Source of the DNA: Myxococcota bacterium
GTDB taxonomy: Bacteria; Myxococcota_A; Bradymonadia; UBA7976; UBA1532
DNA: 64,000 nucleotides
Reading direction: 5' to 3'
NCBI GenBank assembly: GCA_023150895.1
Contig: JAKLJY010000004.1
Coordinates: 43,605 to 107,604 of the forward strand
Shown: positions 18,488 to 46,579 of the stretch, piece after piece
How the letters are laid out: every line of letters starts with the position of its first letter
How positions within the stretch are numbered: position 1 is the stretch's first letter
Translations under genes and position numbers: made by a program
The notes under the pieces: generated by a model
What the model was told of the DNA's origin: nothing
What the model saw: only the letters and a program-made list of their open reading frames with translations
Databases searched by the model: none

Positions 18488-18745
18488 GTCCGCCCGGGCC
18501 TCTCCCCGGAGAGCGGGGTCCGCGTCTTCGTTCTGCGCATGAGGCGATCGTCGCATGTCCCCCGTCGGCGGTAAAGCCGCGGCGGCACGGAGCGGGGCGC
18601 CCTGTGCGACGAAGACTGCGGGGCGGGTTCCCGGCGGTGATGATCTTCCGGGGCTCCGCACGCGGTGTTAGATTCCCGAGGCTGGAGTCGGGGAGGTCCG
18701 GGGGGCCGCCCCTCCGGCGAACCCGCCCGCTCCGCCCGAGGGTCG

Positions 18746-21700
18746 ATGGAAGATCAGCTCTGGCACCGCCTTGAAACCGACGGACTGCTGACCCGAGGCG
18801 AGATTGGTCTCGCCCGTGCCCGCCATGCGGCGGCGGGGGGCGCGCCGGACACGGCCATCATCGAGGTGCGGCCGCTTTCGAGCGAGGAGCGCGCGCACCT
18901 GCGTCGACTGCTCGCGCGGGTCATCGACCAGCCAGTCGCGCCGCCCGCTTTCCTCGACGCGCCGGAGGCCGACGCGCTCGCATTCGTCCCGCGGGAGCTC
19001 GCCGACCGCTTCTCCGTGCTCGCCGTGCGCCTGACGCCTCAACTGCTGACGGTCGTCGCCCCGGCCGTCCCCTCGCGCGTGCTCGCCGAGCTCTCCTTCG
19101 TGGCGGGCCGCAAGGTCCAGCCTTACGTGGCGCTCGAGAGCGACATCCGGCATGCCCTTGCTCGCCACCTCGGTCTGCCGATGCCCCCCCGCTTTCAGGC
19201 CCTCGGTGCGCCGCAGCCGACGCCGCCGCCGCAGTCCCCGGCCGCGAAGCCCGCGCCCGAGGCGCTGCGCGAAGTCGACCGGGGCTGGGGCCAGAACACG
19301 CCCGTCCCGGGCGCCGTGCAGCTCAAGGCCTTGCGCGGCCCGGAGGGCGCCACGCCCCTCCCCGGACTCGGACAGCGCGACTGGGTGGCCCGCGCCCTCG
19401 AGACGCTTCGGGCGGCGCCGGATACGACGGCGCTCAACGCCGAACTCGGACACCTGGCCATCCCCGGCATGCACCTCGCGGTGTTCCTGCGTGTCGTCGG
19501 AGACCGACTCGAGTGCGTCGCCGCAGCCAAGGGGGCCTCGCCGGTGTCCGACGCGACCTCGGTGTGGCTCGAACCCGAAGTCGACTCGATCATCGGGCGG
19601 GCGATTCACCGCTCCGCCACCCGCTGCGGCCCATATCGGGAGGATCCGGCCTTTGCCCGCCTGTATCGGGGCCTGAGCCTGCCGGATCCCGGCGATGTGC
19701 TCGTCGTGCCGCTGAAGCGGGGTGACCGCGTCCTCGGCGTCTTCATCGGCGACAACGGGGCCCAGACGATCGCGCCCCTCACCGCCAGCGCCGTGCGTCG
19801 ACTCCTGGGCGGACTCGTCGAGTTCTGGCCGGTCGACGGCCCGGCGACCGTCGCGGTGCCCGTGGTCGAACCGGGGGCGGCTGCCCCGACCCCGGCGGCC
19901 GCGACGCCCGGCCCGGACGCACCGAGCGCACCCAACGCACCGACCCCCGGGACGCTCCTCGGTCACCCGGCATTGCGGCCGGAGGTGAGTGTTCCGCTCG
20001 GGACCCCGTCCGCACCGCCAGCGGAGGCCGCCGCCGTCGCCCCCGCCGCGAGGGTCGTTCACCGACCGACGGCCGAGCTCGTGTCACTGCCACCACACGA
20101 GACGCCGCCCGTCGAATTCGAGAGCGAGCCCGACGCCGGCCTCCCGGAGTGGGAACTCCCGGGCGAACCGACGGCGACGGCACCGCCGAGGGTGGCCGAG
20201 GGCCCCGAGGAGCCCGCCCTGGTCGACCTTTTCACCTCCGCCGACGTCGCGGAGCTCGCGCTCCTCGACGACCCCCCGCCGGCGGAGTCCGCGACGGCGA
20301 CTCGTCCGGGCGTTCCAGTGCTCGAGACCCGCCCCCTGCTCCCCGCGATCACGACGACGACGGCGGGCACCCCGTCCATCGCCGACACCGTCGTCGAGAT
20401 GCGCCCGATGGCGCTCGCCGAGCTCGTCGACGCGATGGTCGCCGAGACACGGCCGACGCAGACGCTCGCGGCCGTCTCCGCGCTCAAAGAGCCCGCCCCG
20501 ACCGCGCCGCGCCCTCAGCTCCTCGACCTCGATGACATGGCCACGGTGCCGGCGATGGCCCGGTTGCGACCGCGCGCTGCTCCCGACGAGCCGCCGCCTC
20601 CCCCGGCCTCCCCCCCATCCGTCCAGGCCGACGCACCTCCGTCCGCGTCCGCCGACCCGGAGCCGGAACCGGCCCCCCGGGGCTTGCCCTTTCCGACGCC
20701 GGGCTGGACCGACGAACTGCCCGTGCCCGTCGTGACGGCCATTCGCTCCGTACGGGCCGACGCAGAGCCGTCGACGGAGGTCGAAGCGCCGGCGGTGCGC
20801 TTCCAGGCCATCGCCGCGGGCCCTTCGCCCACGGGCGAGACGCCCCGTCCGACGGGATTCCGACCGGGTTTCGCGCCGACGCCGTTCGATCCGCCCTCCG
20901 GGCCGATGCCCCGCGTGACCGTGACGCTCACGCCGCGGCCGGTCGATCCCGAGGCCACGCCCCCACCGGCGCCGGCAGCCGCGCCCGTGCCCGCCGCGCC
21001 CGAGGGGCCCACGACGGCCGAACTCGCGACGGCGCTGCTCGAAGCCTTCGCGCCGGCGCCCGCCCGGGTCGAGGATCCGGGTCGCCCGCAACCGCCCGAG
21101 GCACCGCAGCCGGCGGCCCTCCCGACCGACGCCCCGCGCCGGCGTGTGACGGACGCGGACGTCCGGGTCGCGATCCAGGACCTGAGCCGGCCGGACGCGT
21201 CGGTCCGTCAACAGGCCGAGGATCTGCTCCTCTCGGTGGGCGAACCTGCGCTCGGGCCGATCTTCGACGCCTTCCCCGGCCACCTCGTCGTCGACCGGTT
21301 CGCGCAGCCGGCCGGAGCCATCGCGGTCGAGCAGCACAGCGCCCTCCTCCGGGTCATCGTTCGCCTCGGGCCGCTGGCGACGGGGGCCCTCGAGGGGCTC
21401 TGCGCCCACCTGTCGCCCGAGATCCGGTATTATGCCGTTTACGCGTTCAGCACCCTGCGCAGCCAGGCATCCCTGCCCGTCATCGCCACGCGGCTGACGG
21501 ACAGCGACGCGAGCGTACGAGACGTCGCCGTCCACGTCCTCGAGCAGTATCGCGGCCAGACCGCGTTCAAGCAGTTCGTCGCGCAGGTGCGCGAAGAGCT
21601 CAAGGCCGCGCCGGCCCGCCGGCGACGCGCGCTCGTCGAGGCCGCCGGCCGTTTGCACCTGGCGGAGACCATCCCCGAGCTGGTCCTGCTGCTCGGCGAC

Positions 21701-22018
21701 CTCGGCAGCGGTCTTCAGGAGCCGGCCCACCGCGCCCTTCAGGAGATCGCGCGTGCCGATTTCGGCCTCGACGCCTGGAAGTGGCAGAAGTGGCTCGAGC
21801 GCAACGGACATCGGCCGCGGGTCGAGTGGCTGCTCGACGGCCTCCTGAGCGACCACCGAGCCATCCGGGCCGGCGCGTTTCAGGAGCTCCGCCGCCTGAC
21901 GCACCAGAACTACGGCTATCTGGTCGATGCGCCGCCCGCCGAACGACGCAGCGGGCACGAGCGCTGGCTCAAGTGGTGGCGTGACGTGGGCATGACCCGC
22001 TTCGCCGGATACCGCTGA
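18746..22018 (+). CDS. multidomain protein: T2SSE_N (MshEN-like) domain, GAF-like domain, about 600-aa Pro/Ala-rich disordered linker, C-terminal HEAT (PBS-lyase-like) repeats
   Basis: N-terminus (..LLTRGEIGLARARHA...FVPRELADRFSVLAVRL..LLTVVAPAV..RVLAELSFVAGRKVQPYVALESDIRHAL) fits the T2SS-E N-terminal fold. GAF-like block (..VLVVPLKRGDRVLGVFIGDN..). C-terminus has HEAT-like repeats (..IRYYAVYAFSTLR..ASVRDVAVHVLE..). Start at ATG 18746 (MEDQLWHRL). Confidence 0.7.
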   Translation: MEDQLWHRLETDGLLTRGEIGLARARHAAAGGAPDTAIIEVRPLSSEERAHLRRLLARVIDQPVAPPAFLDAPEADALAFVPRELADRFSVLAVRLTPQLLTVVAPAVPSRVLAELSFVAGRKVQPYVALESDIRHALARHLGLPMPPRFQALGAPQPTPPPQSPAAKPAPEALREVDRGWGQNTPVPGAVQLKALRGPEGATPLPGLGQRDWVARALETLRAAPDTTALNAELGHLAIPGMHLAVFLRVVGDRLECVAAAKGASPVSDATSVWLEPEVDSIIGRAIHRSATRCGPYREDPAFARLYRGLSLPDPGDVLVVPLKRGDRVLGVFIGDNGAQTIAPLTASAVRRLLGGLVEFWPVDGPATVAVPVVEPGAAAPTPAAATPGPDAPSAPNAPTPGTLLGHPALRPEVSVPLGTPSAPPAEAAAVAPAARVVHRPTAELVSLPPHETPPVEFESEPDAGLPEWELPGEPTATAPPRVAEGPEEPALVDLFTSADVAELALLDDPPPAESATATRPGVPVLETRPLLPAITTTTAGTPSIADTVVEMRPMALAELVDAMVAETRPTQTLAAVSALKEPAPTAPRPQLLDLDDMATVPAMARLRPRAAPDEPPPPPASPPSVQADAPPSASADPEPEPAPRGLPFPTPGWTDELPVPVVTAIRSVRADAEPSTEVEAPAVRFQAIAAGPSPTGETPRPTGFRPGFAPTPFDPPSGPMPRVTVTLTPRPVDPEATPPPAPAAAPVPAAPEGPTTAELATALLEAFAPAPARVEDPGRPQPPEAPQPAALPTDAPRRRVTDADVRVAIQDLSRPDASVRQQAEDLLLSVGEPALGPIFDAFPGHLVVDRFAQPAGAIAVEQHSALLRVIVRLGPLATGALEGLCAHLSPEIRYYAVYAFSTLRSQASLPVIATRLTDSDASVRDVAVHVLEQYRGQTAFKQFVAQVREELKAAPARRRRALVEAAGRLHLAETIPELVLLLGDLGSGLQEPAHRALQEIARADFGLDAWKWQKWLERNGHRPRVEWLLDGLLSDHRAIRAGAFQELRRLTHQNYGYLVDAPPAERRSGHERWLKWWRDVGMTRFAGYR

Positions 22019-25184: not shown

Positions 25185-26564
25185 TCAGAACTGCCCGCCG
25201 AGCCCGAGCGCGAGCGTGAAGACGGTCGTCTCCTCGAAGCGCAGTCGGCGCCCCGCCGCGTCAATCGCGGCGACATAGGTCGGATTCTGCTCGTCGGCGT
25301 TGAAACTGGGGTCATCCCGATTCTCGACGAGACCGGTGCCGTCGAGGTCCTTGCCGACGTCTGCGCTGCTCGCAAAGTGCTCCGTCTCGTGGGCAAGCGA
25401 CAGGTCGACCATGAACTTCACGTACTGGCTGAAATACGCTCCGAGACCGAGGTGCCCGCGGACGACACCGAACTGCTCGACGGTCGTGATGCCGTCGAAC
25501 GCCTGCCCGTGGAGCTCCGAGTTGCTATCGGGATTGTAACAGCCGACGTTGCGCGGGGCCGCGGCGCCGAGGGCGCAGGTGCGACCCCCGAAGGCGAAGG
25601 CATCGAACAGGTCCGTATAGTCCCGCCCTTCGCCGTGATACTCCGCGCCGAGCCCGAGATCGATGAACACCTTCACGTATCGCCGTCCGACCTGTTCGAA
25701 CGGCACGATCTCGGCGCCGACGTCGAACTTGGCGACGCCGCCGGGGCCAATCTCCTCCTGAGCGAACTTGTAGTCCTTGAACATCGAGCTCGACGACGGC
25801 ACGAAAAGCGAGCCGCTGACGGAGAAGTAGGGGTCCACATGCTCGAAGCGGCGCGACATCGCCGTGCCGAGGGTCAGCGCGTGAACGCCGCGCCCGACGC
25901 CGTCGTTGCCGGGGCGCATGATCTTGCCGGTCGGCAAACCCCAGGTGAAAAAGAGCGTCCACGTCGCACGAGCCTCGTCTCGCTCCTGATTGAACGGGGA
26001 CCAGCGCAGCGACAGCGACATGTCCCCGAAACCGGCCCGGGTCGGCAGCTTCGGGGGAACCGGGAAGAGGTCCGGCGGATCCTCCGTTTCGCCCGGTGCG
26101 GCATCGGGTGCGATCGTGCTGATCTGCCCGTCGACCGCGACGCCATCCGGATCGCCGCCGTCGCCGGCAAAGCGCACTTCCTGCGTATCGTCGAGGACGA
26201 TGGGCATCTCGATCTGCAGCGCGAGGTCATGCCACAGGCCGAGCTGCGCCCGGGGCGTGAGGCTGTGCGTCCAGCGCTGCACCCGGAGCTCTTTCGCGTA
26301 AACCAGCTCGCCGATGCCGTTCGGGGCCGACGGGCAGGTGTCGGGGGAGGCCTCCTGGGTGCAGTTGAACTCCCGCGTGACCTTCGCGCGGCGCAGCGTC
26401 CGGCTGTAGGTCAGCTCGATGGTCGCGTCGTACGGATCGTCTCCGTCCGCGGCGTCCGCGACGGAGGTGATCTCCGCGCCGTTTACCGAGGCCGCGGGGC
26501 ACAGTACGAGAAGCAGGGCGGCACCCCGGAGGCGGGGCGAGATTCGACGGGCGAAGGTCGGCAT
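25185..26564 (-). CDS. outer-membrane beta-barrel protein (MetA/'transporter'-family-like)
   Basis: Start at MPTFARRISPRLRGAALLLVLCPAASVNG (Sec signal). Alternating amphipathic beta-strand pattern. C-terminal ..TLALGLGGQF with terminal Phe, typical of OM barrels. The upstream extension is a frame shadow. Confidence 0.6.
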   Translation of the reverse strand: MPTFARRISPRLRGAALLLVLCPAASVNGAEITSVADAADGDDPYDATIELTYSRTLRRAKVTREFNCTQEASPDTCPSAPNGIGELVYAKELRVQRWTHSLTPRAQLGLWHDLALQIEMPIVLDDTQEVRFAGDGGDPDGVAVDGQISTIAPDAAPGETEDPPDLFPVPPKLPTRAGFGDMSLSLRWSPFNQERDEARATWTLFFTWGLPTGKIMRPGNDGVGRGVHALTLGTAMSRRFEHVDPYFSVSGSLFVPSSSSMFKDYKFAQEEIGPGGVAKFDVGAEIVPFEQVGRRYVKVFIDLGLGAEYHGEGRDYTDLFDAFAFGGRTCALGAAAPRNVGCYNPDSNSELHGQAFDGITTVEQFGVVRGHLGLGAYFSQYVKFMVDLSLAHETEHFASSADVGKDLDGTGLVENRDDPSFNADEQNPTYVAAIDAAGRRLRFEETTVFTLALGLGGQF

Positions 26565-26620: not shown

Positions 26621-28006
26621 TCAAGTCTCGCGCAACCCAAGTTCCTTCATCTTGATCTGCAGGCTCTTGCGCGAGATTTCGAGTCGGCGGGCGGCCTGCG
26701 TCACATTGCCCCGCGTCTCGGCGAGGGCGCGTTCGATCATCTCCCGCTCGACGGCCTGCGTCGTCAGGCGCACGGCGTCCTTCAGCCCGACCCCGGCGGG
26801 CGGAATCGGGGCCAGCGGCGTCGCCGCTCCGATGCGCCCGGTGAGTTCCGCCGGAAGGTCCGCGACCCGCACGACCGGACCGTCGCAGAACAGCAGCGTT
26901 CGCTCGACGACGTTCTCGAGCTCGCGGATGTTGCCGGGCCACGGGTAGCGCGAGAGAAGCTCGAGGGCCTCGTCTGCGACGCGCTCGATCCCGGCCTTGC
27001 CGAGGCGGACCATGTACTTCTGAAGCATGTGCCCGACGAGGGCCGGGATGTCCTGCGTGCGCTCGCGCAGCGGCGGCAGCGGGATGGGGACGACGTTGAG
27101 CCGATAATAGAGGTCGTCCCGGAACTTGCCGTCGGCGACGTCGCGCGCGAGGTCGCGGTTCGTGGCGGTGATCAGGCGAACGTCGACGCGGCGCGTCGTC
27201 ACGCCGCCGACGCGCTCGAACTCGCTCTCCTGAATGGCCCGCAGCAGTTTCACCTGCATTTCGGTCGAGATCTCACCGATCTCGTCGAGGAAGAGCGTCC
27301 CGGTGTGCGCGAGCTCGAAGCGCCCCGGCTTGCTCGTGACGGCGCCGGTGAAGGCGCCCTTCTCGTACCCGAAGAGTTCCGACTCGATCAGCGTATCGGG
27401 GATCGCTGCGCAGTTGACCCGGATGAAGGGCTTGCTCGCACGCGGGGAGTGTTCGTGGACGGCCTTGGCGATGAGCTCCTTGCCCGTCCCGCTCTCGCCC
27501 GTAATCAGGAGGGTGGACGGCGTCGCGGCGACCTTCTCGACGATCTCGAACACCCGCTGCATGGCCGGGCTCTGCCCGATGATGCCGAACCGCCCCTGCC
27601 CTTCCCGGGCGGGCAACGACGTCGTCTCGCGCGCGTTCAGGCGGCTGGTGCTGACGGCCTTGGCGACGACCTTCGCGAGTTCCTGCAGATCGAACGGTTT
27701 GGTGATGAAGTCGAAGGCACCGAGCTTGACCGCCTCGACGGCAGCGTCGATCGTCCCGTGCGCCGTCACGACGATGACGGGCAGGTCGGGCGCGCGGGCC
27801 GCGACGCGCTTCAGCAGTGCCATGCCATCGAGATTCGGCATCCGGAGATCCGTCAGGATGGACGCGTAATCCTCCTCCTGAACCATCTCCCAGGCCTCGG
27901 CGCCGTCCTCCGCCGTGTCGACCTCGTAGCCCTCCCGGCGGAGCAGGCCCGCGAGGACTTTGCGCAGATTGCTCTCGTCGTCGACGACCAGGATCCGGTC
28001 GCTCAT
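26621..28006 (-). CDS. sigma54-dependent response regulator (NtrC family)
   Basis: Receiver domain (ILVVDDE..LTDLRMPNLDG), AAA+ sigma54-activator domain with GESGTGKE and a GAFTGA motif (EKGAFTGA), and a C-terminal HTH. Start at MSDRILVVDD (ATG 28006). Confidence 0.85.
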   Translation of the reverse strand: MSDRILVVDDESNLRKVLAGLLRREGYEVDTAEDGAEAWEMVQEEDYASILTDLRMPNLDGMALLKRVAARAPDLPVIVVTAHGTIDAAVEAVKLGAFDFITKPFDLQELAKVVAKAVSTSRLNARETTSLPAREGQGRFGIIGQSPAMQRVFEIVEKVAATPSTLLITGESGTGKELIAKAVHEHSPRASKPFIRVNCAAIPDTLIESELFGYEKGAFTGAVTSKPGRFELAHTGTLFLDEIGEISTEMQVKLLRAIQESEFERVGGVTTRRVDVRLITATNRDLARDVADGKFRDDLYYRLNVVPIPLPPLRERTQDIPALVGHMLQKYMVRLGKAGIERVADEALELLSRYPWPGNIRELENVVERTLLFCDGPVVRVADLPAELTGRIGAATPLAPIPPAGVGLKDAVRLTTQAVEREMIERALAETRGNVTQAARRLEISRKSLQIKMKELGLRET

Positions 28007-28100
28007 GGACGCCTCCACGGCATGGCGCCGCGGGCGGCATCGTAGCAGGGCGACGCGGCGCTGGGAACCGACCGGGGCATCCTGTGTTAGAGTCCGCCCC

Positions 28101-31031
28101 ATGCGAGCGACGGCCGCGGGCCTCCGGACGATGGTGTTGTGGGCCGTGTGTGCGCTGGCGCTCGGCGGACTCGCCGGCCTCGTTTTGCCTGGAGTCGCCT
28201 GCGCGGGCGTCCCGTTGCCGGAGTGGCGCACCCTCGAGACACCCCATTTCCGGGTCAACTACCCGAGGGGTCTCGAGGCCGTCGCTTTCCGGGCGGCTCG
28301 CATCTGCGAGGAGGCGCATTCGGCGCTCGTGCCCATGCTGCACCACCGACCGACGGAGCGGACCGAGGTCTCCATCTCCGACTTCGGCGACGCGGCGAAC
28401 GGCTCGGCGACGGCGCTGCCGTCGAACCGCATGAACCTCCTCGCCGCCCCCCCGGGGCCCGACGGCAACCTGGGGGACTTCGACGACTGGCTGCGCCAGC
28501 TCATCTACCACGAGTACACGCACATCCTTCACCTGGACACCATTCATGGCGTCCCGAGGGCGCTCAATCACTTCTTCGGGAAGCGGTTCGCCCCCAATCA
28601 GAACATGCCGTCGTTTCTGATCGAAGGGGTCGCGGTCTACGTCGAGAGCCGAACCTCCGGTCGCGGGCGCGTCCGGTCGGCGATGTTCCGCGGCTGGCTG
28701 CGGACGGCCGCCCTCGAAGGCGCGCTCCACGACCTCGATGCCGCGACGCATTTCCCGCAGACGTTCCCCGGACCCAACGTCTGGTACATGTACGGCGGGC
28801 ATTTCATGGACTGGGTCGCCTCGCGCCATGGCGCCGACGCCCTCGCGCGCATGTTCGCCGTCTACGGCCACGACGTCGTTCCGTTCGCCGTGAATCGAGC
28901 GGCCGTCGCGGCGACGGGAGAGACCGTGACCGCGCTCTGGGCGGCCTGGCAGGCCGACGTCCGGGCGGAGGCCGAGTCCTGGCGGGACTACCGGGGCGTC
29001 TCGCCCGCCGAGGTCGGCAAGACGGCCCCCGCGCTGGTGACGACCTCCGGCGAGCGTCACGAGAACCCCCGTTTCCTGCCCGATGGCACGCTGCTCTCCA
29101 TCGAAGGCGACCCGGAAACGGAGACCGATGTCTACGATCGCGGCCCCGACGGGCGCCGCGCGCCGCGGGTCCGCCTTCATCTCGAGGCGACGGAGCGCTT
29201 CGACGTCTGCCGGCGGTCCGGCGTCCTGGTCTTCGATCAGGTCAACACGCACGCGGGCGGCTACTCGTTCACGGACCTCTTCGTGCTCGAGGGCGACCGG
29301 GTCCGCCGCCTGACCCGTGGCGCCCGCATCCGGGACCCCGCCTGCGACCCTGCGGGGCGCTTTGCGATCGGGGTGCAGATCGTCGCCGGTCGGACCCGCC
29401 TCGTGCGCGTCGAAATCGACACGGGAGAGGTCAGCGTCCTGTACGACCCAGGGCGCCTCGACCTCGTCGCGCACCCTGCCGTCTCGCCGGACGGGCGACG
29501 CGTCGCCTTCATCCGCATCGAAGCCGGCCGACGCGACGTGGGGCTGCTCGAGCTTGCAGGCGCCGGCGCCGCACCGACGTGGTTGACGCGGGACGATGCA
29601 TTGGAGCTGCGCCCCCGGTTCACGCCGGACGGTGCGGACCTTCTGTACGCCAGTGACCGGACGGGGACGTTCGAGCTCTATCTGCACCGCCTCGCCGGGG
29701 GCCCGCCGCGGCGGCTGACCAACACCGTCGGCGGGGTCGTGGAGGGCGAGATCTCGCCCGACGGACGACAGATGGCGACCATCTCCGTCACGGCGGGCGG
29801 GCTCGATCTCGGCATGCTGGCGTTCCACCCCGAGACCGACCTCGGTCACGCGCTCGACCTGCCGGCGGGCCGTACGCCGAGGCCGGATCCGGGAGACGCG
29901 CCGCTGCCGAATCGCCCGTACGAACCCACGGAGACGCTGTGGCCGACCGTCTGGGCACCCAAGATCGCGCTCTCGAGCCCGGAGTCGAACACGCAGCAGG
30001 TCGGGTTGCTGCTCGAATCGACCGACGCGCTGGCCCACCATGCGCTGCTCGGCGACTTCACGACCCAACCGGACGCCGGCGGATACGCGGCGCGGCTGGC
30101 ATGGGGCTATCGGCGGCACGTCCCCAACTTCGCGTTCTCGGCATCACACGAGACCCGGGTGCGCGACGGCGGGCAGTTCTATGCCAACGAACGGCACCCG
30201 CTGCGAGAGGACGTCTCGACGCTGGCAGGCAGCGTCGGGCTCTTCGTCAGTCGCAGCGGCCACGCCGGCAGTCTCTCGGCACGTCTGACCGGCGCGTGGT
30301 TTCGCCCCGTGGAAAACGTCACGCCCGAGTTCGACCCGCTCGACCCTGTTCCCGTGCTACCCGAGGCCTCGCGGACGACGGATCTCTCCATCGGCCTGTC
30401 CTATCGGCACACCGGCCGGACGCTCCGGGCCATCAGTGACGAATCCGGGCTCGCACTCTCGACCTCCCTGCGACTCCGGGACGACCTCATCGGGAGCGAC
30501 AGCCAGACGGCCGAGGTCTTCTTCGACTACCGACACTACCTCGACCTCTGGTTTCGCCACGTGCTCGCGTTCCGGCTGAGCAGCGCGTTCGGCGCCGGAG
30601 ACGACCGCCGAGGCATCAACTACGCGCTCGGACCCGCACCGGAGCGCAACCTCCTGCTCGATGCCCTCGACCAGATCATCTACGGGTCGACGTTCTTCCG
30701 GGGTTTTCCGTCCGGGACGGCGACGGGCAGCCGATATGCCCTCGTGACGGCGGAGTACCGCCTGCCACTCTTCGAACTGTACCGCGGCTTTTCGATGGTG
30801 CCGGCGTTCTTCCGGCATGTGAAGCTCGCGGTCTTCACGGACTGGGCGCAAGCCCGCCGTGATCAGCTCCGCGTCTATCCGAGCTCGTTTCGCAAGTCGG
30901 CCGGGGCCGAGCTCTCGGCGCACGCCCTGCTCGGGTGGCGGCTGCCGCTGGACGGCCGCATCGGCTACGCGCGGGGGTTCGGGGCTGATGGGGAACACCA
31001 GACCTACTTCTTCCTGGGCAACTGGTTCTGA
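28101..31031 (+). CDS. secreted tripartite protein: MA-clan-like HExxH module, TolB-like beta-propeller repeats, C-terminal OM beta-barrel-like domain
   Basis: Sec signal (MRATAAGLRTMVLWAVCALALGGLAGLVLPGVACA). HEYTHILH motif. Repeated PDG..(S/T)PDG.. blades (..FLPDGTLLS.., ..VSPDGRRVAFIR.., ..FTPDGADLLYASDRTGTFELY.., ..ISPDGRQMA..). C-terminal 350 aa has an alternating-strand pattern ending ..YFFLGNWF. Confidence 0.7.
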   Translation: MRATAAGLRTMVLWAVCALALGGLAGLVLPGVACAGVPLPEWRTLETPHFRVNYPRGLEAVAFRAARICEEAHSALVPMLHHRPTERTEVSISDFGDAANGSATALPSNRMNLLAAPPGPDGNLGDFDDWLRQLIYHEYTHILHLDTIHGVPRALNHFFGKRFAPNQNMPSFLIEGVAVYVESRTSGRGRVRSAMFRGWLRTAALEGALHDLDAATHFPQTFPGPNVWYMYGGHFMDWVASRHGADALARMFAVYGHDVVPFAVNRAAVAATGETVTALWAAWQADVRAEAESWRDYRGVSPAEVGKTAPALVTTSGERHENPRFLPDGTLLSIEGDPETETDVYDRGPDGRRAPRVRLHLEATERFDVCRRSGVLVFDQVNTHAGGYSFTDLFVLEGDRVRRLTRGARIRDPACDPAGRFAIGVQIVAGRTRLVRVEIDTGEVSVLYDPGRLDLVAHPAVSPDGRRVAFIRIEAGRRDVGLLELAGAGAAPTWLTRDDALELRPRFTPDGADLLYASDRTGTFELYLHRLAGGPPRRLTNTVGGVVEGEISPDGRQMATISVTAGGLDLGMLAFHPETDLGHALDLPAGRTPRPDPGDAPLPNRPYEPTETLWPTVWAPKIALSSPESNTQQVGLLLESTDALAHHALLGDFTTQPDAGGYAARLAWGYRRHVPNFAFSASHETRVRDGGQFYANERHPLREDVSTLAGSVGLFVSRSGHAGSLSARLTGAWFRPVENVTPEFDPLDPVPVLPEASRTTDLSIGLSYRHTGRTLRAISDESGLALSTSLRLRDDLIGSDSQTAEVFFDYRHYLDLWFRHVLAFRLSSAFGAGDDRRGINYALGPAPERNLLLDALDQIIYGSTFFRGFPSGTATGSRYALVTAEYRLPLFELYRGFSMVPAFFRHVKLAVFTDWAQARRDQLRVYPSSFRKSAGAELSAHALLGWRLPLDGRIGYARGFGADGEHQTYFFLGNWF

Positions 31032-31033
31032 GC

Positions 31034-31651
31034 ATGAACATGGAGACCGCGCCGCCCTCGCCCTCCGCACGCGCGACGCTGTTCTGGTCGCTGGCGCCCT
31101 TGGCGGTCTTCTACCTCGTCGAGAACGCGTATGGACTGACCGCCGCACTGATCGCGTCGATGGCCTTCACGCTCGGTGACCTGGCGTTCACCTGGTGGCG
31201 TCAACGCACACTGGACCGCGTCGCGCTCCTGACCGGCGGCCTCGTGCTGCTGCTCGGCGGACTCTCGCTCATCTCGGACGACGAGCGGTTCATGCTGTAC
31301 ACACCGGTCGTCGGCGATGCCCTCTTCTCCGGTCTCCTGGCCGGAAGCGTCATGCGTGGCCGACCGGTCCTGGTGGTGCTCGCCCTGAAGCAGGACCCGA
31401 CGCTCGTCGACGACGGGCCCCGCCGCGCATTTCTCGGCGGCATGACGCTGCGCCTCGCCGTCAACCTGGCGCTTCACGGCGTGGCGACGGCCCTCGCGGC
31501 GGGTGCGAGCCGCGAGACGTGGCTGTTCGTCTCCGGCCCGCTCCAGTACATCCAACTGGGGCTTCAGTTCGTCGTCGAGATCGTGTGGGGCCGGTACACG
31601 CTGCCGCCCGAGGAGCCGCCGCCCCCGGGCGATTCTCGCGACGATCGGTGA
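31034..31651 (+). CDS. inner-membrane protein, YciB/intracellular-septation-protein-A-like
   Basis: 5 TM helices. Pattern ..LAPLAVFYLVENAYG..FTWWRQRTLDRVALLTGGLVLLLGGLSLISDDERFM.. resembles the YciB family. Confidence 0.45.
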   Translation: MNMETAPPSPSARATLFWSLAPLAVFYLVENAYGLTAALIASMAFTLGDLAFTWWRQRTLDRVALLTGGLVLLLGGLSLISDDERFMLYTPVVGDALFSGLLAGSVMRGRPVLVVLALKQDPTLVDDGPRRAFLGGMTLRLAVNLALHGVATALAAGASRETWLFVSGPLQYIQLGLQFVVEIVWGRYTLPPEEPPPPGDSRDDR

Positions 31652-34711: not shown

Positions 34712-37700
34712 TCAGCCAATCGCGAGCCCGAGGGCCTTGCGGAGCTTGAAGTAGTTCTCCGAGAGCCCGTACAGGACGAGTTCGCGGACGCGATCCTGCA
34801 CCGGTGCCTTGCTGAACTGACCGGGCTCATTCTTGATGCAACGAACGGCCGCGCCGAGGTCGTTGCTCAGGACGAATCCGAGTCGATTCGACGAGTGCTC
34901 GATCATCTCGAGCCACTTCGACAGGTTCAGGTGCTGCTGCTGGTTCTCGCTCATCTTGGCGATCAGCTTGCTGATCTCCTGGAGGTCCGCCGCCGGAATG
35001 CCGCGGAAGCTCTCGAGCAGGTCGTCGTCCTTGAACGGAACCTCGGCCGCCGGGTTCACGAGCTTCATCACCGTGTAGACGATGGTGAAGAGGCGTGCCT
35101 TGCGACGCTCGTACGTCGGATCGATGGTGGCCGTGTAGAAGTGCTGGCCCATCATCATCAGCTGTTTCGAGCAGATGAACGCCAGTTCCTGCATGGATCG
35201 ACCGCTGAGCACGTCGCCCCCGACCATCATCGCGGGCGGGTTGAGGTTCGCGGACAGAATCCCATTCCCCGCGTCGGGGATGCGGAAGACCTCGACGCGA
35301 TGCAGACGGGTGACCTGAGTGACGTAGTTCAGCACGTTGTTGAAGGGGGTCTGCTCGGTCGGTTCGACCACGTCCTTCTTCTTGTGCAGCTTGAGGTCCT
35401 TGTGCTGCTGCGCCATCAGCGGGACGGTGTACTGATACAGCCGCTGGAAGAACTGCGCGAGCAGCAGGCTGAGCTCGGGGTGGTAGATCAGGCCCCACTG
35501 CTCGTTGTCGAGGGGCTTGCGGGCCTGCGCCAGCGTCTTGGACCGGTACTTCTCGAAGAAGGCGCGCTCGTCGGCGTTGGCATGACCGAGGTACGAGAGG
35601 ACCTGGCAAACGCACCAAGCCTCATCGTAACGGCCGCTCTCCATGAAGAGGCGTCGGACCTGCTGGTAGCTCTCCACGTTGCGCGGGTTGAGCTCGATCA
35701 TCTTGTAGTGCTCGGCGATCGCCTTGTCGGGCTGCTCGTTGAGTTCGAACAGCTCTGCGACGATCGTGTGCACCTGCAGGTCTTCCGGCGACTTCGTCAG
35801 CGCGATCTTGTAGGCCTTGATGGCCTCATCGTACTTCTTCAGTCGCGTCCGGTTGATCTCGCCGAGACCCTTCGCCAGCGTGATGACCAGCTTGTCGTCG
35901 AGCTTGGACTCCATCGCCCGCTTGAGCATCTTGCGGTAGTAGCGGTCCTGCCGCTCGTAGTCCCGCTCGTTGGTCAGGATCTGGTCGATGGCCTGGAACG
36001 CCTTGAGCATCGCGGCGTCGGCGTCGAGCGCCTTGTCGAGCGTGCGGACGGCCAGGAAGTTGTCCTTCAGCTCGTCTCGCTGAATGACACCGATGGTGTA
36101 GTAGTACTTCGACTGCCGCGCGGGATCCCGCTCGAGCTCCGCGAGGCGCGTGAGGATCTCGACGGCTTCGTTCCACTGTCGGGCCTCCTGGTAGAGGTCG
36201 AGCAGCTTGCTCAGCACGAGGCGGCTGTCCGACTGGACCGTGAGGGCCTCTTTGTAGGCGTCGACGGCCTTCGGCACGTTGCGCAGGTGCTCGCGCAGGA
36301 TGTCGCCGATCGTCACGAGCGACTGGAATCGATCGTTGGCGTCGAGGTCCAGCGCCAGCAACTGCCGGCGGTGATGGATGACGTCCTCCCAGTCGCCCTG
36401 CTTCTCGTGGAGATCCACGACGGCGCGCAGCACGCCCTCGTTGCGGGGCTCGAGGTCCAGCGCCTTCTTGAAGAAGTCGAGCGCCTTGCGCCGTTCGCCG
36501 ACCTTCAGCTTGATCTGACCCTGTCGATAGAAGATCTCGACGACGTCCGCCTCGCTGAGGTTCTCGCGATGGTGGACGAGGATCGTCTGGTAGATCTTGA
36601 AGGCGCGGTCCCAGTCTTCGCGACGGAACAGCAGGTTGCCCATGCCCTGCAGGGTGGGCAGGTGGGTGCTGTCGAGCTCGTACGCGGCCTTGTAATGGGT
36701 CAGGGCCTTCTCGTCCTTGTGGAGCTGCTCCGCGACGAAACCGACCCGGTAGTTGAGCGTCTGCAGCTCTCGAACGTCGGCGCTGGTGTTCGTCTTGTGC
36801 TGGACGATCAGGTCGAGCAGAGGCTCAGCGCGCTCCCACCGACGATCCTCCCAGTACACCTCGACGAGCGGCACCGCCGCCTCGACGTTGTCGTGCATGT
36901 CCCGCGACTGCTCGTAGTAGTCGATGGCCGCGCCCCGATCGCCGAGGAACTTCTCGTAGACCTGACCAATCTCGAAGAGGCACTTCGCCTTCTCCGGGAA
37001 GCTCTTCGTCGCCGCCTCGATCATCTTGAGGGTCCGGACGACGTCGCCCCACTCCGCGCGCTGCTCGTGGACACCCTTGAGGGCCTGCAGGGCGGGGAGG
37101 TAGGCCGGATCGTGTTCGAGCGCGCTCTTGTACCAGCGCTCGGCCTGGTCCAGGTCGCCGACCTTCTCCTCGTAGACCTTGCCGACCCGGTACTGCCGAT
37201 CGAGGACCAGGGGGCGCTCGTTGAGCAGATGCGCTTCGCGGCTCAGCGCGTCGATGCAGTTGGGCCAGTCCTCGACCTGAGCGTAGAGCTCGCCGAGGGC
37301 GGTCAGCGTCGCGAGGTGGCGAGAATCGATCTCGAGGACGGGCGTGAGCGTCTCGATGGCCGCATAGGCATCCGCCAGCGGACCCCGGTAGAGCGCTGCA
37401 AGCTGCGTGTACGTCGCCACGCGCGCCCGATCGTCCGTCAGGGCCTCGAGGTGGAGCCGGTACACGTCCGCGAGGTCGTGCCAGAGGCCCGCATCGCGAT
37501 ACAAACGTTCCAGGGCCCGGACGGCCTGGACGTTGGCGGCGTCGACCATGAGCATCTTGCGATACGTGTCGATCGTCGACGTCCGGTCACCGAGCTCTTC
37601 CTCCTGGATGAGCGCGATGCGTGCATAGATCGCGAGCTGCTGGGTCGGCTCCGTCTTGACGTTGAGCATCATCTCGAAGACGTCGAGGAGATCGCGCCAA

Positions 37701-40700
37701 CGGTCCTGTCCCGTGTACAGCTTCTCGAGCGCGGTCATCGCGTCGAGGCAACGGTCGTCGACGGAGAGCGCCTGCCGGTATGCGTCGATGGCGCGCTCCG
37801 GATTCCCGAGGCGGCCTTCGTAGAGTTCACCGATGCGGAGGTGGTTTTCGACGATCTGTGCCGCGTCGTAGATCACCTGCGTCTGGCGAACCAGGACGTT
37901 GATGAGGTCCTGCCAGCGTTCGCGGACGGCATACAGGCGTTCGAGCGCCTGCAGCGTACCGAGTTCGGTGTCGTCAATCGCCTGAACCTGCCGCCAGGCG
38001 TCGATGGCGGCGTCGGGACGCTCGAGGCGCTCTTCGAGGATCCGGGCCATCCGCTCGAGCGCGGCCTTGCGCTCGTCGGGCTCCGTGGAGAGCTCGGCGC
38101 GACGCTGCAGCACCGTCACGACCTCGGGCCACTTGTTGTAGCGCTCGAGGAGATTCTGGAGCGCATCGAGGGCCTTGAGATTGTCGGGCTCGATGGCCAG
38201 AACGTACTGATAGTGCGTCCCGGCGTGCTCCGGCGTCTTCAGGTAGCGATCGTAGATGCCCGCGACCCGCAGATGCAGACCGACCGAGGCCGGGACGTGC
38301 CCCATCCCGTGCAGGACGTTCTCGTAGAGGTGGACGAGGTCGGACCACTTGTCCCCGAGCCCCGCAAGCCGCTCGAGATCCCCACCGAGACGTTCATCGT
38401 CCTTGATCTCTTCGAACGCGTTGGAAAGCACGAGGAACGCGTTGTCGACGCTGTCGAGACGGGTCTCGAAGACACCCGCCGTCCGCCGGTAGAGCTCCTC
38501 GCGGTCGAACGGATCCGTCGTCGTCTCGAGGCGCTGCAGCAGCAGGCCGACGAGCTCCTCCCACTGCATGTCGGCGGCGTACAACCGCTCGAGTTCCTGG
38601 GACGCGTCGAGGTTGGTCGGCTGCAGCTCGAGGATCTGAGCGTAGGCCCGCTTCGCGCCATCGGCCTCACCGATGCGCTTCTCCCACATCTCGGCGACGC
38701 TGAAGAGGATGCTGACCTTGTCGAACGCGTCGACGGTGATGTCGGCCTTGCGATCGAGGACCTCGACACACGCGCGCCAGTTCTCCGAAGCAGTGTGAAG
38801 CGCCTCGAGCGCATCGATGGCGTCTGCATCCTGGGGGGCGAGAGAGAGCACGCTCGACCACGCGCGGACGGCGTCCTCCGGGCTCTCGAGCGCGGTCTGG
38901 TAGAGTTCGCCGAGCTGACGGTAGAGGTCGACGCGCCGCGCGTCGCTCCCCGGCAGCAGGTCGAGCAGTCGGTGATCGGCGCGCGCGAGGTCGGCAAACT
39001 CCGCCGTGCGCTCGTGCAGGCCCCGAATGGCCCACAGGGCCGCTTCATGACCGGCGTCGCGGTCGAGGACCTTGTTCCAGTTCTCCAGGGCGTTGCGCTC
39101 GCGATCGAGGTAGTCGCCCCACACGCGACCGAGCTTCGAGAACAGCTCGATCTCGCGCTCGACACCGTTGTCCGGGAGGTTGACCTGACGGTCGCAGACG
39201 TCGACGAGCTCGCGCCAGCGCTCCTGCCCCTCGTAGAGGCCCTCGAGCGCGCGCAGTGCGGTCGGGTCCTCCCCTTCCAGATCGAGGACCTTGCTCCACA
39301 GATCGATGGCGTCGTCGGGACGCTGCAGCATCTGAGACGCGATGTCGGCCATCCGGGCGAAGAGGCGCGCCTTCTCCGCGTCGCGCTCGGCGACCTCGGA
39401 CTGCCGGTTCAGAACGTCGAAGAGCGGCTCCCACTCTTCCCGTGCCTGGTAGATCTGCTCGAGGCGGGCCAACGCACCGGCATGGTGCGGTTCCTGCTCC
39501 AGGATGCCCCGGTACTGTTCGACCGCGAGGTCGAGCTCGGTCAGCCACGTCTCGTAGACCTGTCCGAGCCGGTACATGAACGCGAGCAGCAGCGGCTCGT
39601 CGTAGGTGGCACCGATCTCCCGGCGCAGAACCTCGACGAGTTCCGCCCAGCGGTGCTGCTGCACGTACAGTTCGTCGAGACCGGTGAGCGCGGCGGCATC
39701 GACCGGGTCGATCTCCAGAATGTACCGGTACATCCGCTCGGCCGACTCGTCGTCCGAGAGCCGCGTGCGGTAAAGCACGGCCATCTCGTGCGCGAGGGAC
39801 TTCAGCAGCTCCGCGTCCTGCGTCCGGTGCATGCCCTCGGTGAACGTCCGGACGAGATCGCCGTAGCGTTCCGTCGCGGCCGCAAGCCGAGAGAGTTCCT
39901 TGCGGCCCGTCTCGTCCTCCGGCGTTTCCTTGAACGAGATCGCGTACCAGTCGAAGGCGCGCTCCGGCTCGGCGAGATGCTCGATGCAGAGTTCGGCGAG
40001 ACGGTGCAGGTGCCGCGTGCGGTCATCGCCCGGCTCTTTGAACGGAAGAAGCGCCTCGAGCACGCCGTGCAGGCGGATCCAGTCCTGGCGCTCCAGGTAC
40101 AGGGGCTCGAGGATCTCGCCGATCTGCGGGCGCTCGTGTCCCGCGTCGAAGAGGCGCACCAACGCGCCGACCGCGTCCGGTTGCTCCGCCTGCTCGACCA
40201 GCACGTCCTTGAACGTATTGATCGCCGTCGGGACGTCGTCGAGCGCCGTCTCGTAGAGGCTCCCCAGGCGGAGCAGCAGCGCGATCCGCTGCGGCACCTC
40301 CGTCGCCCCCTCGACCTCGACCCGGAGGATGTCGGCCAGATCGGCCCACATGCCCTCCTTCTGATAGAGGCGGTCGAGGGCGAGGATCGCCCCCTGATGG
40401 TCGGGCTCGACCTCGCGGACGCGGCGATAGCGCTCCACGGCATCGACGTTCGACCCGAGCTCTTCCTCGTAGATCCGGGCCACCCGGAGATACAGGTCGC
40501 GAGCAATGGCGTCCGTCTGCACGTGGCCGAGGAGCTGCTCGATCAGACCGGCGAGCCGGTCGAAAGCCCCGGAGGTCCGTGCGACGCGCTCGAGCGCGGC
40601 AAAGGCCTCGAGGTGAGCGCCATCCTCTTTCACCGCTTCCGCATAGGCATCGAACGCCTGATCGGAGTCGGCGAGCATGTCCTCGAACGCTGCGCCCACC

Positions 40701-43700
40701 TGCAGATGGAGCGCGGTCCGGGCGTCCACCTCCGAGGTGACCTCGAGCAGTGAGCGCCAGCCGGCGATCAGGCGATCCCAGGCCCCGGCCTTCTCCAGAA
40801 CGGGCTGGAGGACCGCCATCGCGGCCACCGACTCGCGGTCCGTGCGAATGAGTCCTTCGAGCGCCTGCAGGCTCGGCTCGTGCCCCGGCCACTGGGCCAG
40901 AATGTCGCGATACCCTTCGATGGCGGTCGGGACCTGCTCGAGCGCCGTCTCGTACAGGTTCGCGATCCGGAAGTGCAGCGCGACCTGCGCTTCGGGCTCG
41001 CTGACCACGGCGACTTCGCGAACGAGAATGCCGCGCAGCTCTTCCCACTTCTCGAGGCGGTGATAGAGGCTGTCGAGGCACTGCAGGGCCGTGAGGTCCT
41101 GCGCGTCCCAGCCGAGGACCGTCTGGTACGTCTCGACGGCCCGGGTCAGGTCGTCGAGTTCGCGGTCGTACGCCGCGCCGATGACGTAGTAGATGTCCTT
41201 CCGGGCTGCCAGGTCCTCGGTGAGTTCGGCCTTGCGGTGCAGGATCTCGAGCAGGTCCTCCCAGCGCGCGAGCGACAGGAAGATGCGCTCCAGAGCATCG
41301 AGCGCTTTGGCATCGACCGCATCGACCTCCAGGACGGCCCGGTAGATCTCCACCGCGCGGTGCGGATCGCTGAGCATCTCCTCGAAGATGGCGCTGACCC
41401 GGAAGAGGAGATCCTTCTTCGGGAACGCCTCCTCCGTCAGCTCGGCCTTCCGCAACAGGACAGCGACGAGTTCGTTCCACTGTTCCGTCTGGAAGTAGAT
41501 GTCCTCGAGGGCGGCAATGCACTCGAGGTCGGTGTCTTCCGCGGCGTAGGCGGCCTCGTAGTGGCGCCGTGCGCCGGCAAGGTCCCGCAGGTTCCCCAGT
41601 TGTACACGCGCAACACGCTTGTGAATATCGGTCGCGACCGCCGGCTCGGAGATGTCGTCGACGAGCCCTTCGTAGACCGCGACGAGCTCGCCCCAGATCT
41701 CCAGCGCCTCCGCAATCCGGGTCAGCTCCGCCAGCGTCCGGCCGTTGCCGGGCTCGACCGCGAAGGCCCGGGCATAGCTGCGGAACGCCTCGTCCGGTGC
41801 GCCGCCCCGGTTCTGATGGAGCTCGGCGATCCGATGGAGCAACTCCACCTGCCGCTCGGCGGTGTCGGCGTGCTCACGCTGGATCTCGTAGACACCGACC
41901 AGCTTCTCCCAATCGTCGCGGCCCCGGTAGATGGGCTCGAGAATGTCGGCGATCGTCGCCTGATACTCGGGCTCTCCCAGCAGCCGTTCGAGCGCCCCGA
42001 GGGCATCGGCGTTGTCCGGCGTCTGCGTCACCACCGTCCGATAGGTCTCGATGGCCTGCGCCGCGTTCCCGAGTTCGCCCTCCTGCAAGGCACCGAGGCG
42101 GACCTGCAGGCTGATCTTCTCGGCGTCGTCGGTCGCGAGGGCCAGCTGGCGTTCGATGACCTCGCCGAGCTCGGTGAACTGGCCGAGTGCCCCGTACAGA
42201 CGATCGAGTGCTCGGAGGGCCCGGACGTTGTGCTCGTCGGCCTCGAGGATCTCGCGGTACGTAACGATGGCCTCGTTCGGATCCTCGAGCATCTCCTCGA
42301 GGAGTTGACCGATCTGGAACTGCAGCGCTTCGCGGACGTCCGGGAGCTCCGTCAGCTCGAGCTTGCGCCGATAGATCGCGAGCAGCTCCGGCCACATCTG
42401 GGCCCGGGCGTACAGGCGTTCGAGGCTCTCGATCGACGTTCGGTTGTCCGCCTCGAGATTGAGCACCCGGGTGTGCGCATCGATGGCTCGGGGCACGTCG
42501 CCGAGCCGCTCCTCGTAGACGACGGCCAGGCGGGCGAGCAGTGCCCGGGCGAGCGCGTCGTCCTTCGCGTCGGGAGTGACCTCTTCGAGCAGCGCGGCGA
42601 AATCCTGGAACTTCTGACCGACCTCGGCGAGCTCCGAGAGCCGGCCCACCGCGACGTGACTCGACGGCACCTCGCGAAGAGCGCGAGCGAATGCGTCGAA
42701 CGCTCGGTCCACGTCCGCCGTCCGCGCGGTGTGCAAGGCACCAATCCGCTCGAGGAGCTCGAAGCGCTTGACGGTCTCCGCCGTGTCCTCGAGCTCGATT
42801 TCGAGCACTCGGACGAGGGCCTCCCATTCACCCTGATCGTGGTAGATCGGCTCGAGGATCTTGGCGACCGGACCGCGGAACTCGGGGTCGATCAACAAGC
42901 CTTCGAGGGCGCTGCGCGCCTCGGCGTGTGTCGGGTTGGCCTCGAGAATGTCCCGGAACGCACCGATGGCATCGGCCGTGCGACCGAGCGCGTGCAGCTC
43001 GATGAACCCGAGCTGAAGCTTGAGGGGCAGCGGGTCCCCTTCACCGGTCACGGCGATGAGCTGCAGTTCCCGCTGCAGGACGTCATGGAGTTCCTCGAAA
43101 CGCTCGCCCTGCTGGAAGAGGCGGTGCAGCGCCGCAAGGGCGTCACGGTCGCCCTCGTCCTCGGCGACGATCGCTCGGTACTTCTCGACGGCAGAGTCCG
43201 CGTCGTCGAGTTGCTCTTCGAAGATGACCCCCTGCTTTCGCAGCAGGGCCTTGCGCGCCTCGATCCCATCCGCGAGAGCGAGCTTGCGATCGATGACGCC
43301 GAGCAGGTCATGCCAGCTCGCGAGCCGGGTATACAGGCCCTCGACCGCGTCGAGCGCCACGAGATTCTCGGGTTCGATCGAAAGGGCGTCGTGGTAGCGG
43401 GCGAGCGCGTCGTGCGTCTGCCCCATGTTCTGATCGAGAATCCGGGCCAACGCCAGCGTGATGTGCAGCTGAGCGGCGGTATCACCGGCGGCGTTCGCGA
43501 GCGCCGAGACGAGGTCGTCGTGGACGGTGGACCACTGGTGCGTCAGTCCGCCGAGGCGTTCGAGCTCGCCCTGCACCTCGACGTCCGTCGGGTGTTCCTG
43601 GAGGGCGCGTCGAACCCACTCGAACGCGGAATCGGGATTGCGAAGGTGCTGCTCGTAGATGCGCGCGCTGCGCATCATCAGCTGGCGTCGCTCCGTCGGG

Positions 43701-46423: not shown

Positions 46424-46579
46424 CAAAGTCGCCTTTTTCCGGACGTCGCTGGATGGTCGTGGCGCTGCCACGATGATCGAATGAACCTGCACCGTTCGCC
46501 CGCCCCCGGGGGCCGAGCGCGACTCTTATAGCATCGGGCGCCCGGGCCGACAACGACCACGGGCCGGCCGGCGCGGGAC

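Follow-up and report, generated by a model that had tools for sequence, protein, structure and literature searches.

The Omp85/TpsB superfamily has been divided into ten subfamilies, one of which, termed 'WD40-like' (WD40-Omp85), combines N-terminal PD40 repeats with an Omp85 barrel and possesses no POTRA domains (Heinz & Lithgow 2014, Front Microbiol 5:370; PMC4104836). In that study, the family domain profiles of Table S2 take the form PF01103+PF07676xN, and in Table S3 each tested member returned a Phyre2 barrel match to 4k3b or 4c00 (BamA/TamA), a best WD40 match to TolB (2w8b or 2ivz) and a 'best aminopeptidase hit' to an M1-type structure (1z5h, 4kxd, 3qnf or 4fgm) at a confidence of 98.7-99.4; the members listed include A9FGN9, B4UC98, A7HC17 and J1SNQ0 (PMC4104836). 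The main text proposes a BamA-BamB fusion analogy as speculation only, leaves the peptidase undiscussed and reports no experiment, and active-site conservation, promoter and genomic contexts of the WD40-like proteins are not treated (PMC4104836). Here, we describe a gene for a 976-residue protein within a 64,000-nucleotide (nt) stretch of a Myxococcota bacterium contig (JAKLJY010000004.1; hereafter the window), which is ~70% GC across its length. The gene encodes a Sec-exported outer membrane protein of the WD40-like Omp85 subfamily, in which a gluzincin metallopeptidase domain is followed by a six-bladed beta-propeller, a Pro-rich linker devoid of POTRA domains and a 16-strand barrel (Table 1). 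It shares with the subfamily both the POTRA-less arrangement of a PD40/TolB-like propeller before an Omp85 barrel and an N-terminal domain that matches M1-type aminopeptidase structures. Since the same three modules already appear in Table S3 of the earlier catalogue, the architecture is not new, and the protein is a further, ordinary member of a known but experimentally uncharacterised subfamily.

The domain boundaries derive from an AlphaFold2 model built from 62 homologues (predicted local distance difference test, pLDDT, 90.1; predicted template modelling score, pTM, 0.88), with secondary structure assigned by DSSP. In this model the N-terminal domain is an alpha/beta plus helical unit (residues ~40-297), and structure comparison revealed a clear similarity to MA-clan folds and a thermolysin-like catalytic fold. 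It was structure comparison alone that identified this fold, since searches of the domain against PDB sequences, both with the single sequence and with a profile, gave only noise. Pfam and NCBIfam scans likewise placed no family, peptidase or other, above threshold for the domain, the Pfam model Peptidase_MA_2 (PF13485) scoring 12.1 bits on the 976-residue protein against a gathering threshold of 32.4. Among 28 N-terminal domains of the family, sub-threshold Pfam matches fell to Peptidase_MA_2 (9/28, the best at E 1e-4), BSP (9/28), M9 (5/28) and M61 (4/28), the commonest families all being metallopeptidases. With an HExxH motif and a later glutamate carried on a thermolysin-like fold, the domain belongs among the gluzincins.

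The peptidase domain is also the best conserved part of the protein, with a mean identity to the query of 50%, compared to 38% for the propeller and 37% for the barrel. Motif counts, taken from an alignment of 62 sequences, are collected in Table 1. The (I/L)EGxA motif that contains the candidate third zinc ligand, E175, lies 33 residues past the second histidine and is reminiscent of the M1 NEGFA helix; E182 is also invariant. The ANGSA region forms a strand at residues 101-104 of the model and is part of a wider, nearly invariant motif, DxANGSA. By its likeness to the GxMEN motif of M1 enzymes and to the edge strand of thermolysin, this is likely to be the substrate-binding edge strand. The terminal phenylalanine is present in 50 of the 62 aligned sequences. 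Across the aligned sequences, conservation of the predicted active-site residues, of the L6 and beta13 lock motifs of the barrel and of the C-terminal aromatic residue is family-wide.

Beyond the peptidase domain, the model contains six four-stranded blades (residues ~310-575), where Pfam detects PD40 repeats in four stretches (E 7e-13) and a profile search reaches the propellers of tricorn and S9 peptidases; NCBIfam adds a partial TolB-propeller match, together with weak BamA matches. PF26549 and PF26550, which may be tricorn-type propeller families, are precomputed on nearly all homologues and appeared in none of our local Pfam scans. The linker that follows contains a conserved Y607 and P615; no POTRA family was found in Pfam scans, and no folded segment separates propeller and barrel in the model. 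The C-terminal region consists of 16 long strands and was assigned by structure comparison to the BamA/TamA type of membrane barrel. No family scored above threshold for the barrel in Pfam or NCBIfam scans: Omp85 (PF01103), whose cut-off is 24 bits, reached 16.4 bits with the full protein and 19.3 bits with the isolated barrel sequence, over profile positions 112-322 of 325, and several of the listed homologues carry PF01103 in precomputed annotation. The DSSP reading gives a long L4 (~20 residues), an L6 of 44 residues that includes the RGF motif, and periplasmic turns of 2-9 residues, a loop pattern that appears Omp85-like and in the expected register. At the N-terminus, the signal peptides of orthologues end in AxA/GD at the equivalent place, and no lipobox is conserved there. 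These results bear out the first-pass annotation of this DNA, which had described a secreted, divergently encoded protein ending in GNWF, with a HEYTH-containing MA-clan-like module, four or more PDG blades and a C-terminal outer membrane barrel; since an MA-clan fold and a membrane barrel, rather than a soluble beta-sandwich, were found, its tripartite reading is correct. Its impression that such a fusion had not been characterised is sound in that we found no experiment, but the architecture did not go unrecognised, having been catalogued in 2014 (PMC4104836).

The first search returned 518 homologues at E<=0.001 among 8,000 candidates scored, species-representative genomes contain at least 593 loci, and a profile of the N-terminal domain recovered 2,521 50%-identity representatives (E<=1e-30). 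Of 140 newly fetched representatives, all possess HExxH and 101 are at least 900 residues long; 96 of these 101 carry RG(Y/F) in their last 200 residues. Sequences with this N-terminal domain are, then, mostly full-length (~950-1040 residues), and the shorter representatives, which have arbitrary lengths, look like truncated open reading frames (ORFs) from metagenomes. Homologue labels include Polyangiaceae, Kofleriaceae and Sandaracinus, and the accessions listed for the subfamily include myxobacterial ones, among them entries from Sorangium, Anaeromyxobacter and Myxococcus.

For genomic context we inspected 80 of the at least 593 loci (numbered L001 onwards), comprising the 11 closest (44-85% target identity) and 69 more distant ones (30-34%); the labels of the 80 are almost all those of myxobacterial or deltaproteobacterial metagenome-assembled genomes (MAGs). 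No neighbour is conserved family-wide among these 80 loci, the best neighbour cluster reaching 18/80. In the window the gene is divergent from that of an NtrC-type sigma-54 activator, an arrangement shared by 8 of the 11 closest loci (of the other three, one or more lack upstream sequence) and by none of the 69 distant ones. In Kofleriaceae-/Haliangiales-type MAGs the orthologue is instead the last gene of an rpoN-hpf-ptsN-hprK-rapZ-ptsH-ptsI cluster (L029, L036, L039, L047, L062, L065 and L073; for example L062 7947, L073 7941 and L029 5097). Its start overlaps the ptsI stop (ATGA or GTGA) in at least L029, L062 and L073 and is followed by a normal signal peptide, which suggests translational coupling to this operon of the nitrogen-related phosphotransferase system, PTS(Ntr), and sigma-54. 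In Sandaracinaceae-/Polyangiales-type loci the orthologue is divergent from an FHA+DUF4388 gene. That two unrelated neighbourhoods have a sigma-54 flavour is curious but is no evidence that transcription depends on sigma-54.

Taken together, our findings are best explained, with a probability that we put at roughly 55%, by an outer membrane-anchored periplasmic zinc peptidase that is screened by its propeller and expressed in a sigma-70-type manner. The barrel would be inserted in the outer membrane mainly as an anchor. To our knowledge, beta1 begins on the periplasmic side in every Omp85 barrel, and the peptidase-propeller module would thus, by default, hang in the periplasm, tethered under the barrel. 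Zinc would be bound by H137, H141 and E175, with E138 serving as the general base. The propeller may pack on the peptidase and serve as a platform that recruits substrates or gates their entry, much like the propellers of TolB, tricorn and S9 peptidases, such that only unfolded segments of envelope proteins would reach the cleft for endo- or exopeptidase cleavage. Its likely task, at the inner face of the outer membrane, would be to process envelope proteins or to control their quality. Comparative sequence suggests that a leaderless mRNA from an extended -10 promoter probably runs on into the adjoining yciB-like gene, and the sigma-54 activator would be a lineage-specific neighbour rather than a regulator of the 976-residue gene. 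Several observations weigh against this explanation. The Pfam matches to Omp85 and MA-clan families fall under their gathering thresholds; a linker of 41 residues might, in principle, pass through the barrel in the manner of type V secretion; two independent lineages place the gene beside sigma-54 components (an enhancer-binding protein here, an rpoN operon elsewhere), which makes some regulatory link conceivable; a strict sigma-70 scan requiring a -35 element found nothing in the spacer, so that the promoter call draws on conservation alone; and our literature search found no experiment on the peptidase-propeller-Omp85 architecture for any member of the family.

The linker lends itself to a different account, a type V-like self-export in which the barrel moves its own peptidase-propeller to the cell surface, like the patatin of PlpD (type Vd), giving a surface-anchored or released protease for myxobacterial nutrient acquisition or predation. 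It is conserved, unstructured and Pro-rich, precedes beta1 and is long enough for the barrel lumen; moreover, PlpD likewise carries its enzyme on the N-terminal side of an Omp85 barrel, and surface export has been discussed as an option for enzyme-Omp85 fusions (PMC4104836). We consider such export possible but doubtful, for the protein has no POTRA, whereas many patatin-Omp85 domain profiles carry PF07244 (POTRA) (PMC4104836), the passenger would be a folded two-domain module of 570 residues, the family resides in housekeeping contexts (e.g. the rpoN-PTS operon) and not in predation loci, and the L6 RG(Y/F)/FxDxG lock that typifies closed BamA/TamA barrels is intact. Conservation of these BamA/TamA hallmarks would sit well with a BamA-BamB-like assembly factor, whose barrel would be an outer membrane protein insertase and whose propeller a built-in BamB-like scaffold for partners, with the peptidase either in an accessory role or editing stalled substrates as an integral BepA-like unit. 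The gene closes the rpoN-to-ptsI cluster in another lineage, and in proteobacteria the rpoN-PTS cluster adjoins lpt envelope genes, which we count in favour of this role. It is, nevertheless, the peptidase domain and not the barrel that is most conserved, and the POTRA domains that normally handle substrates in BamA and TamA are absent. Even with the BamA-BamB analogy already put forward (PMC4104836), an assembly factor is in our estimation unlikely.

A regulatory alternative would be that a degenerate sigma-54 promoter, situated in the spacer, lets the divergent activator drive the 976-residue gene. The activator is indeed of the NtrC family, as the first-pass annotation had it from the GAFTGA motif: Pfam identifies Response_reg, Sigma54_activat (E 1e-73), AAA_lid_14 and HTH_8, Walker A and GAFTGA lie at residues 170 and 217, and the combination of a GAFTGA-bearing AAA+ domain with REC and HTH_8 makes it a sigma-54 enhancer-binding protein, for which an NCBIfam scan gave no equivalog at cut-off. 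The spacer, too, has exactly the 94 nt first reported. In favour of sigma-54 control are the divergent arrangement kept in 8 close loci, the orthologue within an rpoN operon in a second lineage, and a GG...GC string in the spacer, TGGGAAccgaccgGGGCA (28062-28079), that had been annotated as a -24/-12-like element. The string is present, but its GG-to-GC spacing is 12-13 nt and thus 1-2 nt off the canonical 11, and it is partly kept only in L001 and L002, the two nearest relatives. The pattern TGGCAC-N5-TTGCW, allowing up to three mismatches, found no match in the spacer (28007-28100), nor in the 250 nt that precede the start of nine orthologues; over the whole window it gave 140 matches against 152 expected, which is chance level. 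The elements that are conserved are TAnnnT boxes, and the pairing with the activator is confined to the closest clade, being absent from all 69 distant loci. Since myxobacteria encode dozens of enhancer-binding proteins, chance adjacency is not rare. The proposed element is therefore not a sigma-54 promoter, and the control that it had implied is very improbable. It is tempting to speculate on a more far-reaching outcome, namely a POTRA-less Omp85 that exports its own module as a new type V subclass, or a self-contained editing protease of outer membrane biogenesis that unites BepA and BamB functions on a BamA-like barrel, the recurrent position beside sigma-54 components (the enhancer-binding protein in this clade, the coupling to ptsI in another) then reflecting a real regulatory tie of envelope proteolysis to the sigma-54/PTS-Ntr network; we regard this as a tentative and rather doubtful prospect.

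Sigma-70-type expression, as supposed for the anchored periplasmic peptidase, is suggested by the comparison of nine orthologous spacers. When these are aligned at the start codon (ATG/GTG), TA(G/A)nnT stands 6-8 nt ahead in 9/9 and is preceded by TGn in 7/9; it is the sole element common to the nine, the surrounding sequence failing to align. Since a Shine-Dalgarno sequence would not fit between this element and the start codon, at which the signal peptides begin, the simplest reading is a leaderless transcript from an extended -10 promoter of the sigma-70 type (TGnTAGnnT). On the activator side an equivalent box, identified by eye as TAC(C/G)AT, TAGGAT or TAGACT, is present in L001, L002, L006, L009, L010 and L011. 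Two conserved, putative extended -10 boxes placed back to back are what explains the spacer. A perfect 8-nt inverted repeat, GCGCCGCG/CGCGGCGC (28025-28032 and 28054-28061), flanks the -10 box of the activator. An operator is conceivable, although chance is the probable source of a GC-only repeat of 8 nt in DNA of 70% GC.

The yciB-like gene begins 2 nt past the stop of the 976-residue gene (junction TGAgcATG), with which it is probably co-transcribed, and the same order is found in L001-L003. This second gene is of the IspA/YciB (intracellular septation protein A) type, and the pair is possibly an operon for two envelope proteins; the rest of the surroundings in the window consists of housekeeping genes. 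Downstream of the activator lies the gene for a 459-residue protein that has a signal peptide and ends in LGLGGQF, an outer membrane protein-like terminus; the first-pass annotation had taken it for an outer membrane beta-barrel, which is plausible. It has no match in Pfam, NCBIfam or PDB sequences and only 56 homologues, all unnamed hypothetical or unlabelled. The two genes also occur together in L001, L004, L005, L009, L010 and L011. In L004, L005, L009, L010 and L011 the orthologue of the 459-residue gene is preceded by a conserved sigma-70-like promoter, (G)TTTAC(T/C), ~17 nt, then TATG(C/T/G)T or TATCGT. The window and L001 lack this promoter, and in both the gap between activator and 459-residue gene is only 56 nt; co-transcription of the two is therefore likely there. 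A candidate sigma-54 site upstream of the 459-residue gene, AGGAACTTGGGTTGCG at 26631-26646 (-), was rejected because it falls within codons of the activator (KELGLR) and because orthologues carry AGGAGCTCGGGCTCCG or similar strings in its place. L010 (5723-8798) has an extra ~700 nt between the activator and the downstream gene, and its 976-residue orthologue is apparently frameshifted at the N-terminus, with the signal peptide missing from the translation; an assembly error or an insertion specific to the lineage is the probable cause. Farther away in the window, 18665-22018 (+) is a 1,117-residue ORF that has MshEN near its N-terminus, HEAT repeats in its C-terminal part and, between them, a very long low-complexity stretch rich in Pro and Ala, and 34712-46492 (-) is a single ORF of 3,926 residues, the N-terminal 1,164 of which were scanned and are TPR-rich (Pfam TPR_14, TPR_6, TPR_8 and others).

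Table 1. Features of the 976-residue peptidase-propeller-Omp85 gene and its surroundings (positions in the window; aa, amino acid residues; counts from the 62-sequence alignment)
Feature	Positions	Strand	Basis or remark
976-aa secreted peptidase-propeller-Omp85 protein	28101-31031	+	ORF, AlphaFold2 model, homologues
Signal peptide, aa 1-35, signal peptidase I site ACA/G (...VACA/GVPLPEW)	28101-28205	+	Sequence
Gluzincin (MA-clan) metallopeptidase domain, aa 36-300	28206-29000	+	Structure comparison
ANGSA motif, aa 99-103, ~35 residues upstream of HExxH	28395-28409	+	A 59/62, N 61/62, G 62/62, A 60/62
HEYTH putative zinc-binding/catalytic motif, aa 137-141 (H137, E138, H141)	28509-28523	+	Each residue 62/62
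E175 in (I/L)EGxA motif, candidate third zinc ligand (HExxH-x33-E)	28623-28625	+	62/62
Six-bladed TolB/PD40-type beta-propeller, aa 310-575	29028-29825	+	Model
Pro-rich linker, aa 576-616 (41 residues)	29826-29948	+	DSSP: no regular secondary structure
16-strand Omp85-type beta-barrel, aa 617-976, ends ...GNWF	29949-31028	+	Model
L6-loop RGF (R867, G868, F869), Omp85 hallmark (V/L)RG(Y/F)	30699-30707	+	R 61/62, G 62/62, Y/F 62/62
beta13 FTDWA, corresponding to Omp85 (F/G)xDxG	30834-30848	+	F912 54/62, D914 62/62, G/A916 61/62
Divergent spacer, exactly 94 nt	28007-28100		Between activator and 976-aa gene
Extended -10-like box TGtTAGAGT, 7 nt before ATG 28101	28085-28093	+	Conservation
String TGGGAACCGACCGGGGCA, first annotated as -24/-12-like	28062-28079	+	Not a sigma-54 promoter
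Extended -10-like box TGCTACGAT of activator gene	28039-28047	-	Sequence
Activator Shine-Dalgarno sequence GGAGG, after its -10-like box	28010-28016	-	Sequence
NtrC-type sigma-54 enhancer-binding response regulator, 461 aa	26621-28006	-	Pfam domains and GAFTGA
459-aa secreted protein, co-directional with and downstream of activator	25185-26564	-	ATG at 26564
IspA/YciB-like inner-membrane protein gene	31034-31651	+	Pfam IspA E 5.5e-15

Nothing about this locus is new in kind, and the sigma-54 link that had made it seem special does not hold. The interest lies in the family, which is large, has an invariant active site and a fixed architecture, and lacks an assigned function. A protease joined permanently to a BamA-like barrel would be a new activity in the Omp85 superfamily, and the family is a clean candidate for it. 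With a confident model and defined catalytic residues in hand, mutagenesis and topology tests are straightforward.

Compared with known systems, the protein shows no architectural difference from the WD40-like subfamily. It departs from BamA and TamA, which have POTRA domains where it has an enzyme and a propeller at its N-terminus, and its Pfam and TIGR03303 scores lie far below the cut-offs. PlpD (type Vd, patatin-POTRA-Omp85) is similar in that a single chain carries a hydrolase ahead of an Omp85-type barrel; the hydrolase there, however, is a patatin joined through POTRA, whereas here it is a metallopeptidase with a propeller and no POTRA, and export of the N-terminal module is only hypothetical. 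The propeller of TolB, of the Tol-Pal system, is soluble, whereas in the 976-residue protein it is fused; the TolB equivalog TIGR02800 gives 72.6 bits against a cut-off of 343.15, the matched part being the propeller only (profile positions 182-352), and the N-terminal alpha/beta domain of TolB has no counterpart here. With the gluzincins (M30 lugdulysin; the M1 enzymes ERAP1, APN, F3 and LTA4H; M9 collagenases; M61; M4 thermolysin; Pfam Peptidase_MA_2) the protein shares a thermolysin-like fold and an HExxH motif with a downstream glutamate. M1 enzymes, however, have HExxH-x18-E and GxMEN, in contrast to HExxH-x33-E and DxANGSA without GxMEN here; Peptidase_M1 gave no Pfam match, and the flanking domains of M1 enzymes are missing. 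For the activity proposed, the nearest parallels are functional analogies only: BepA, a periplasmic M48 zinc protease associated with BAM, acts at the site of outer membrane assembly, and in tricorn and the S9 POP/acylaminoacyl peptidases a propeller restricts entry to the peptidase.

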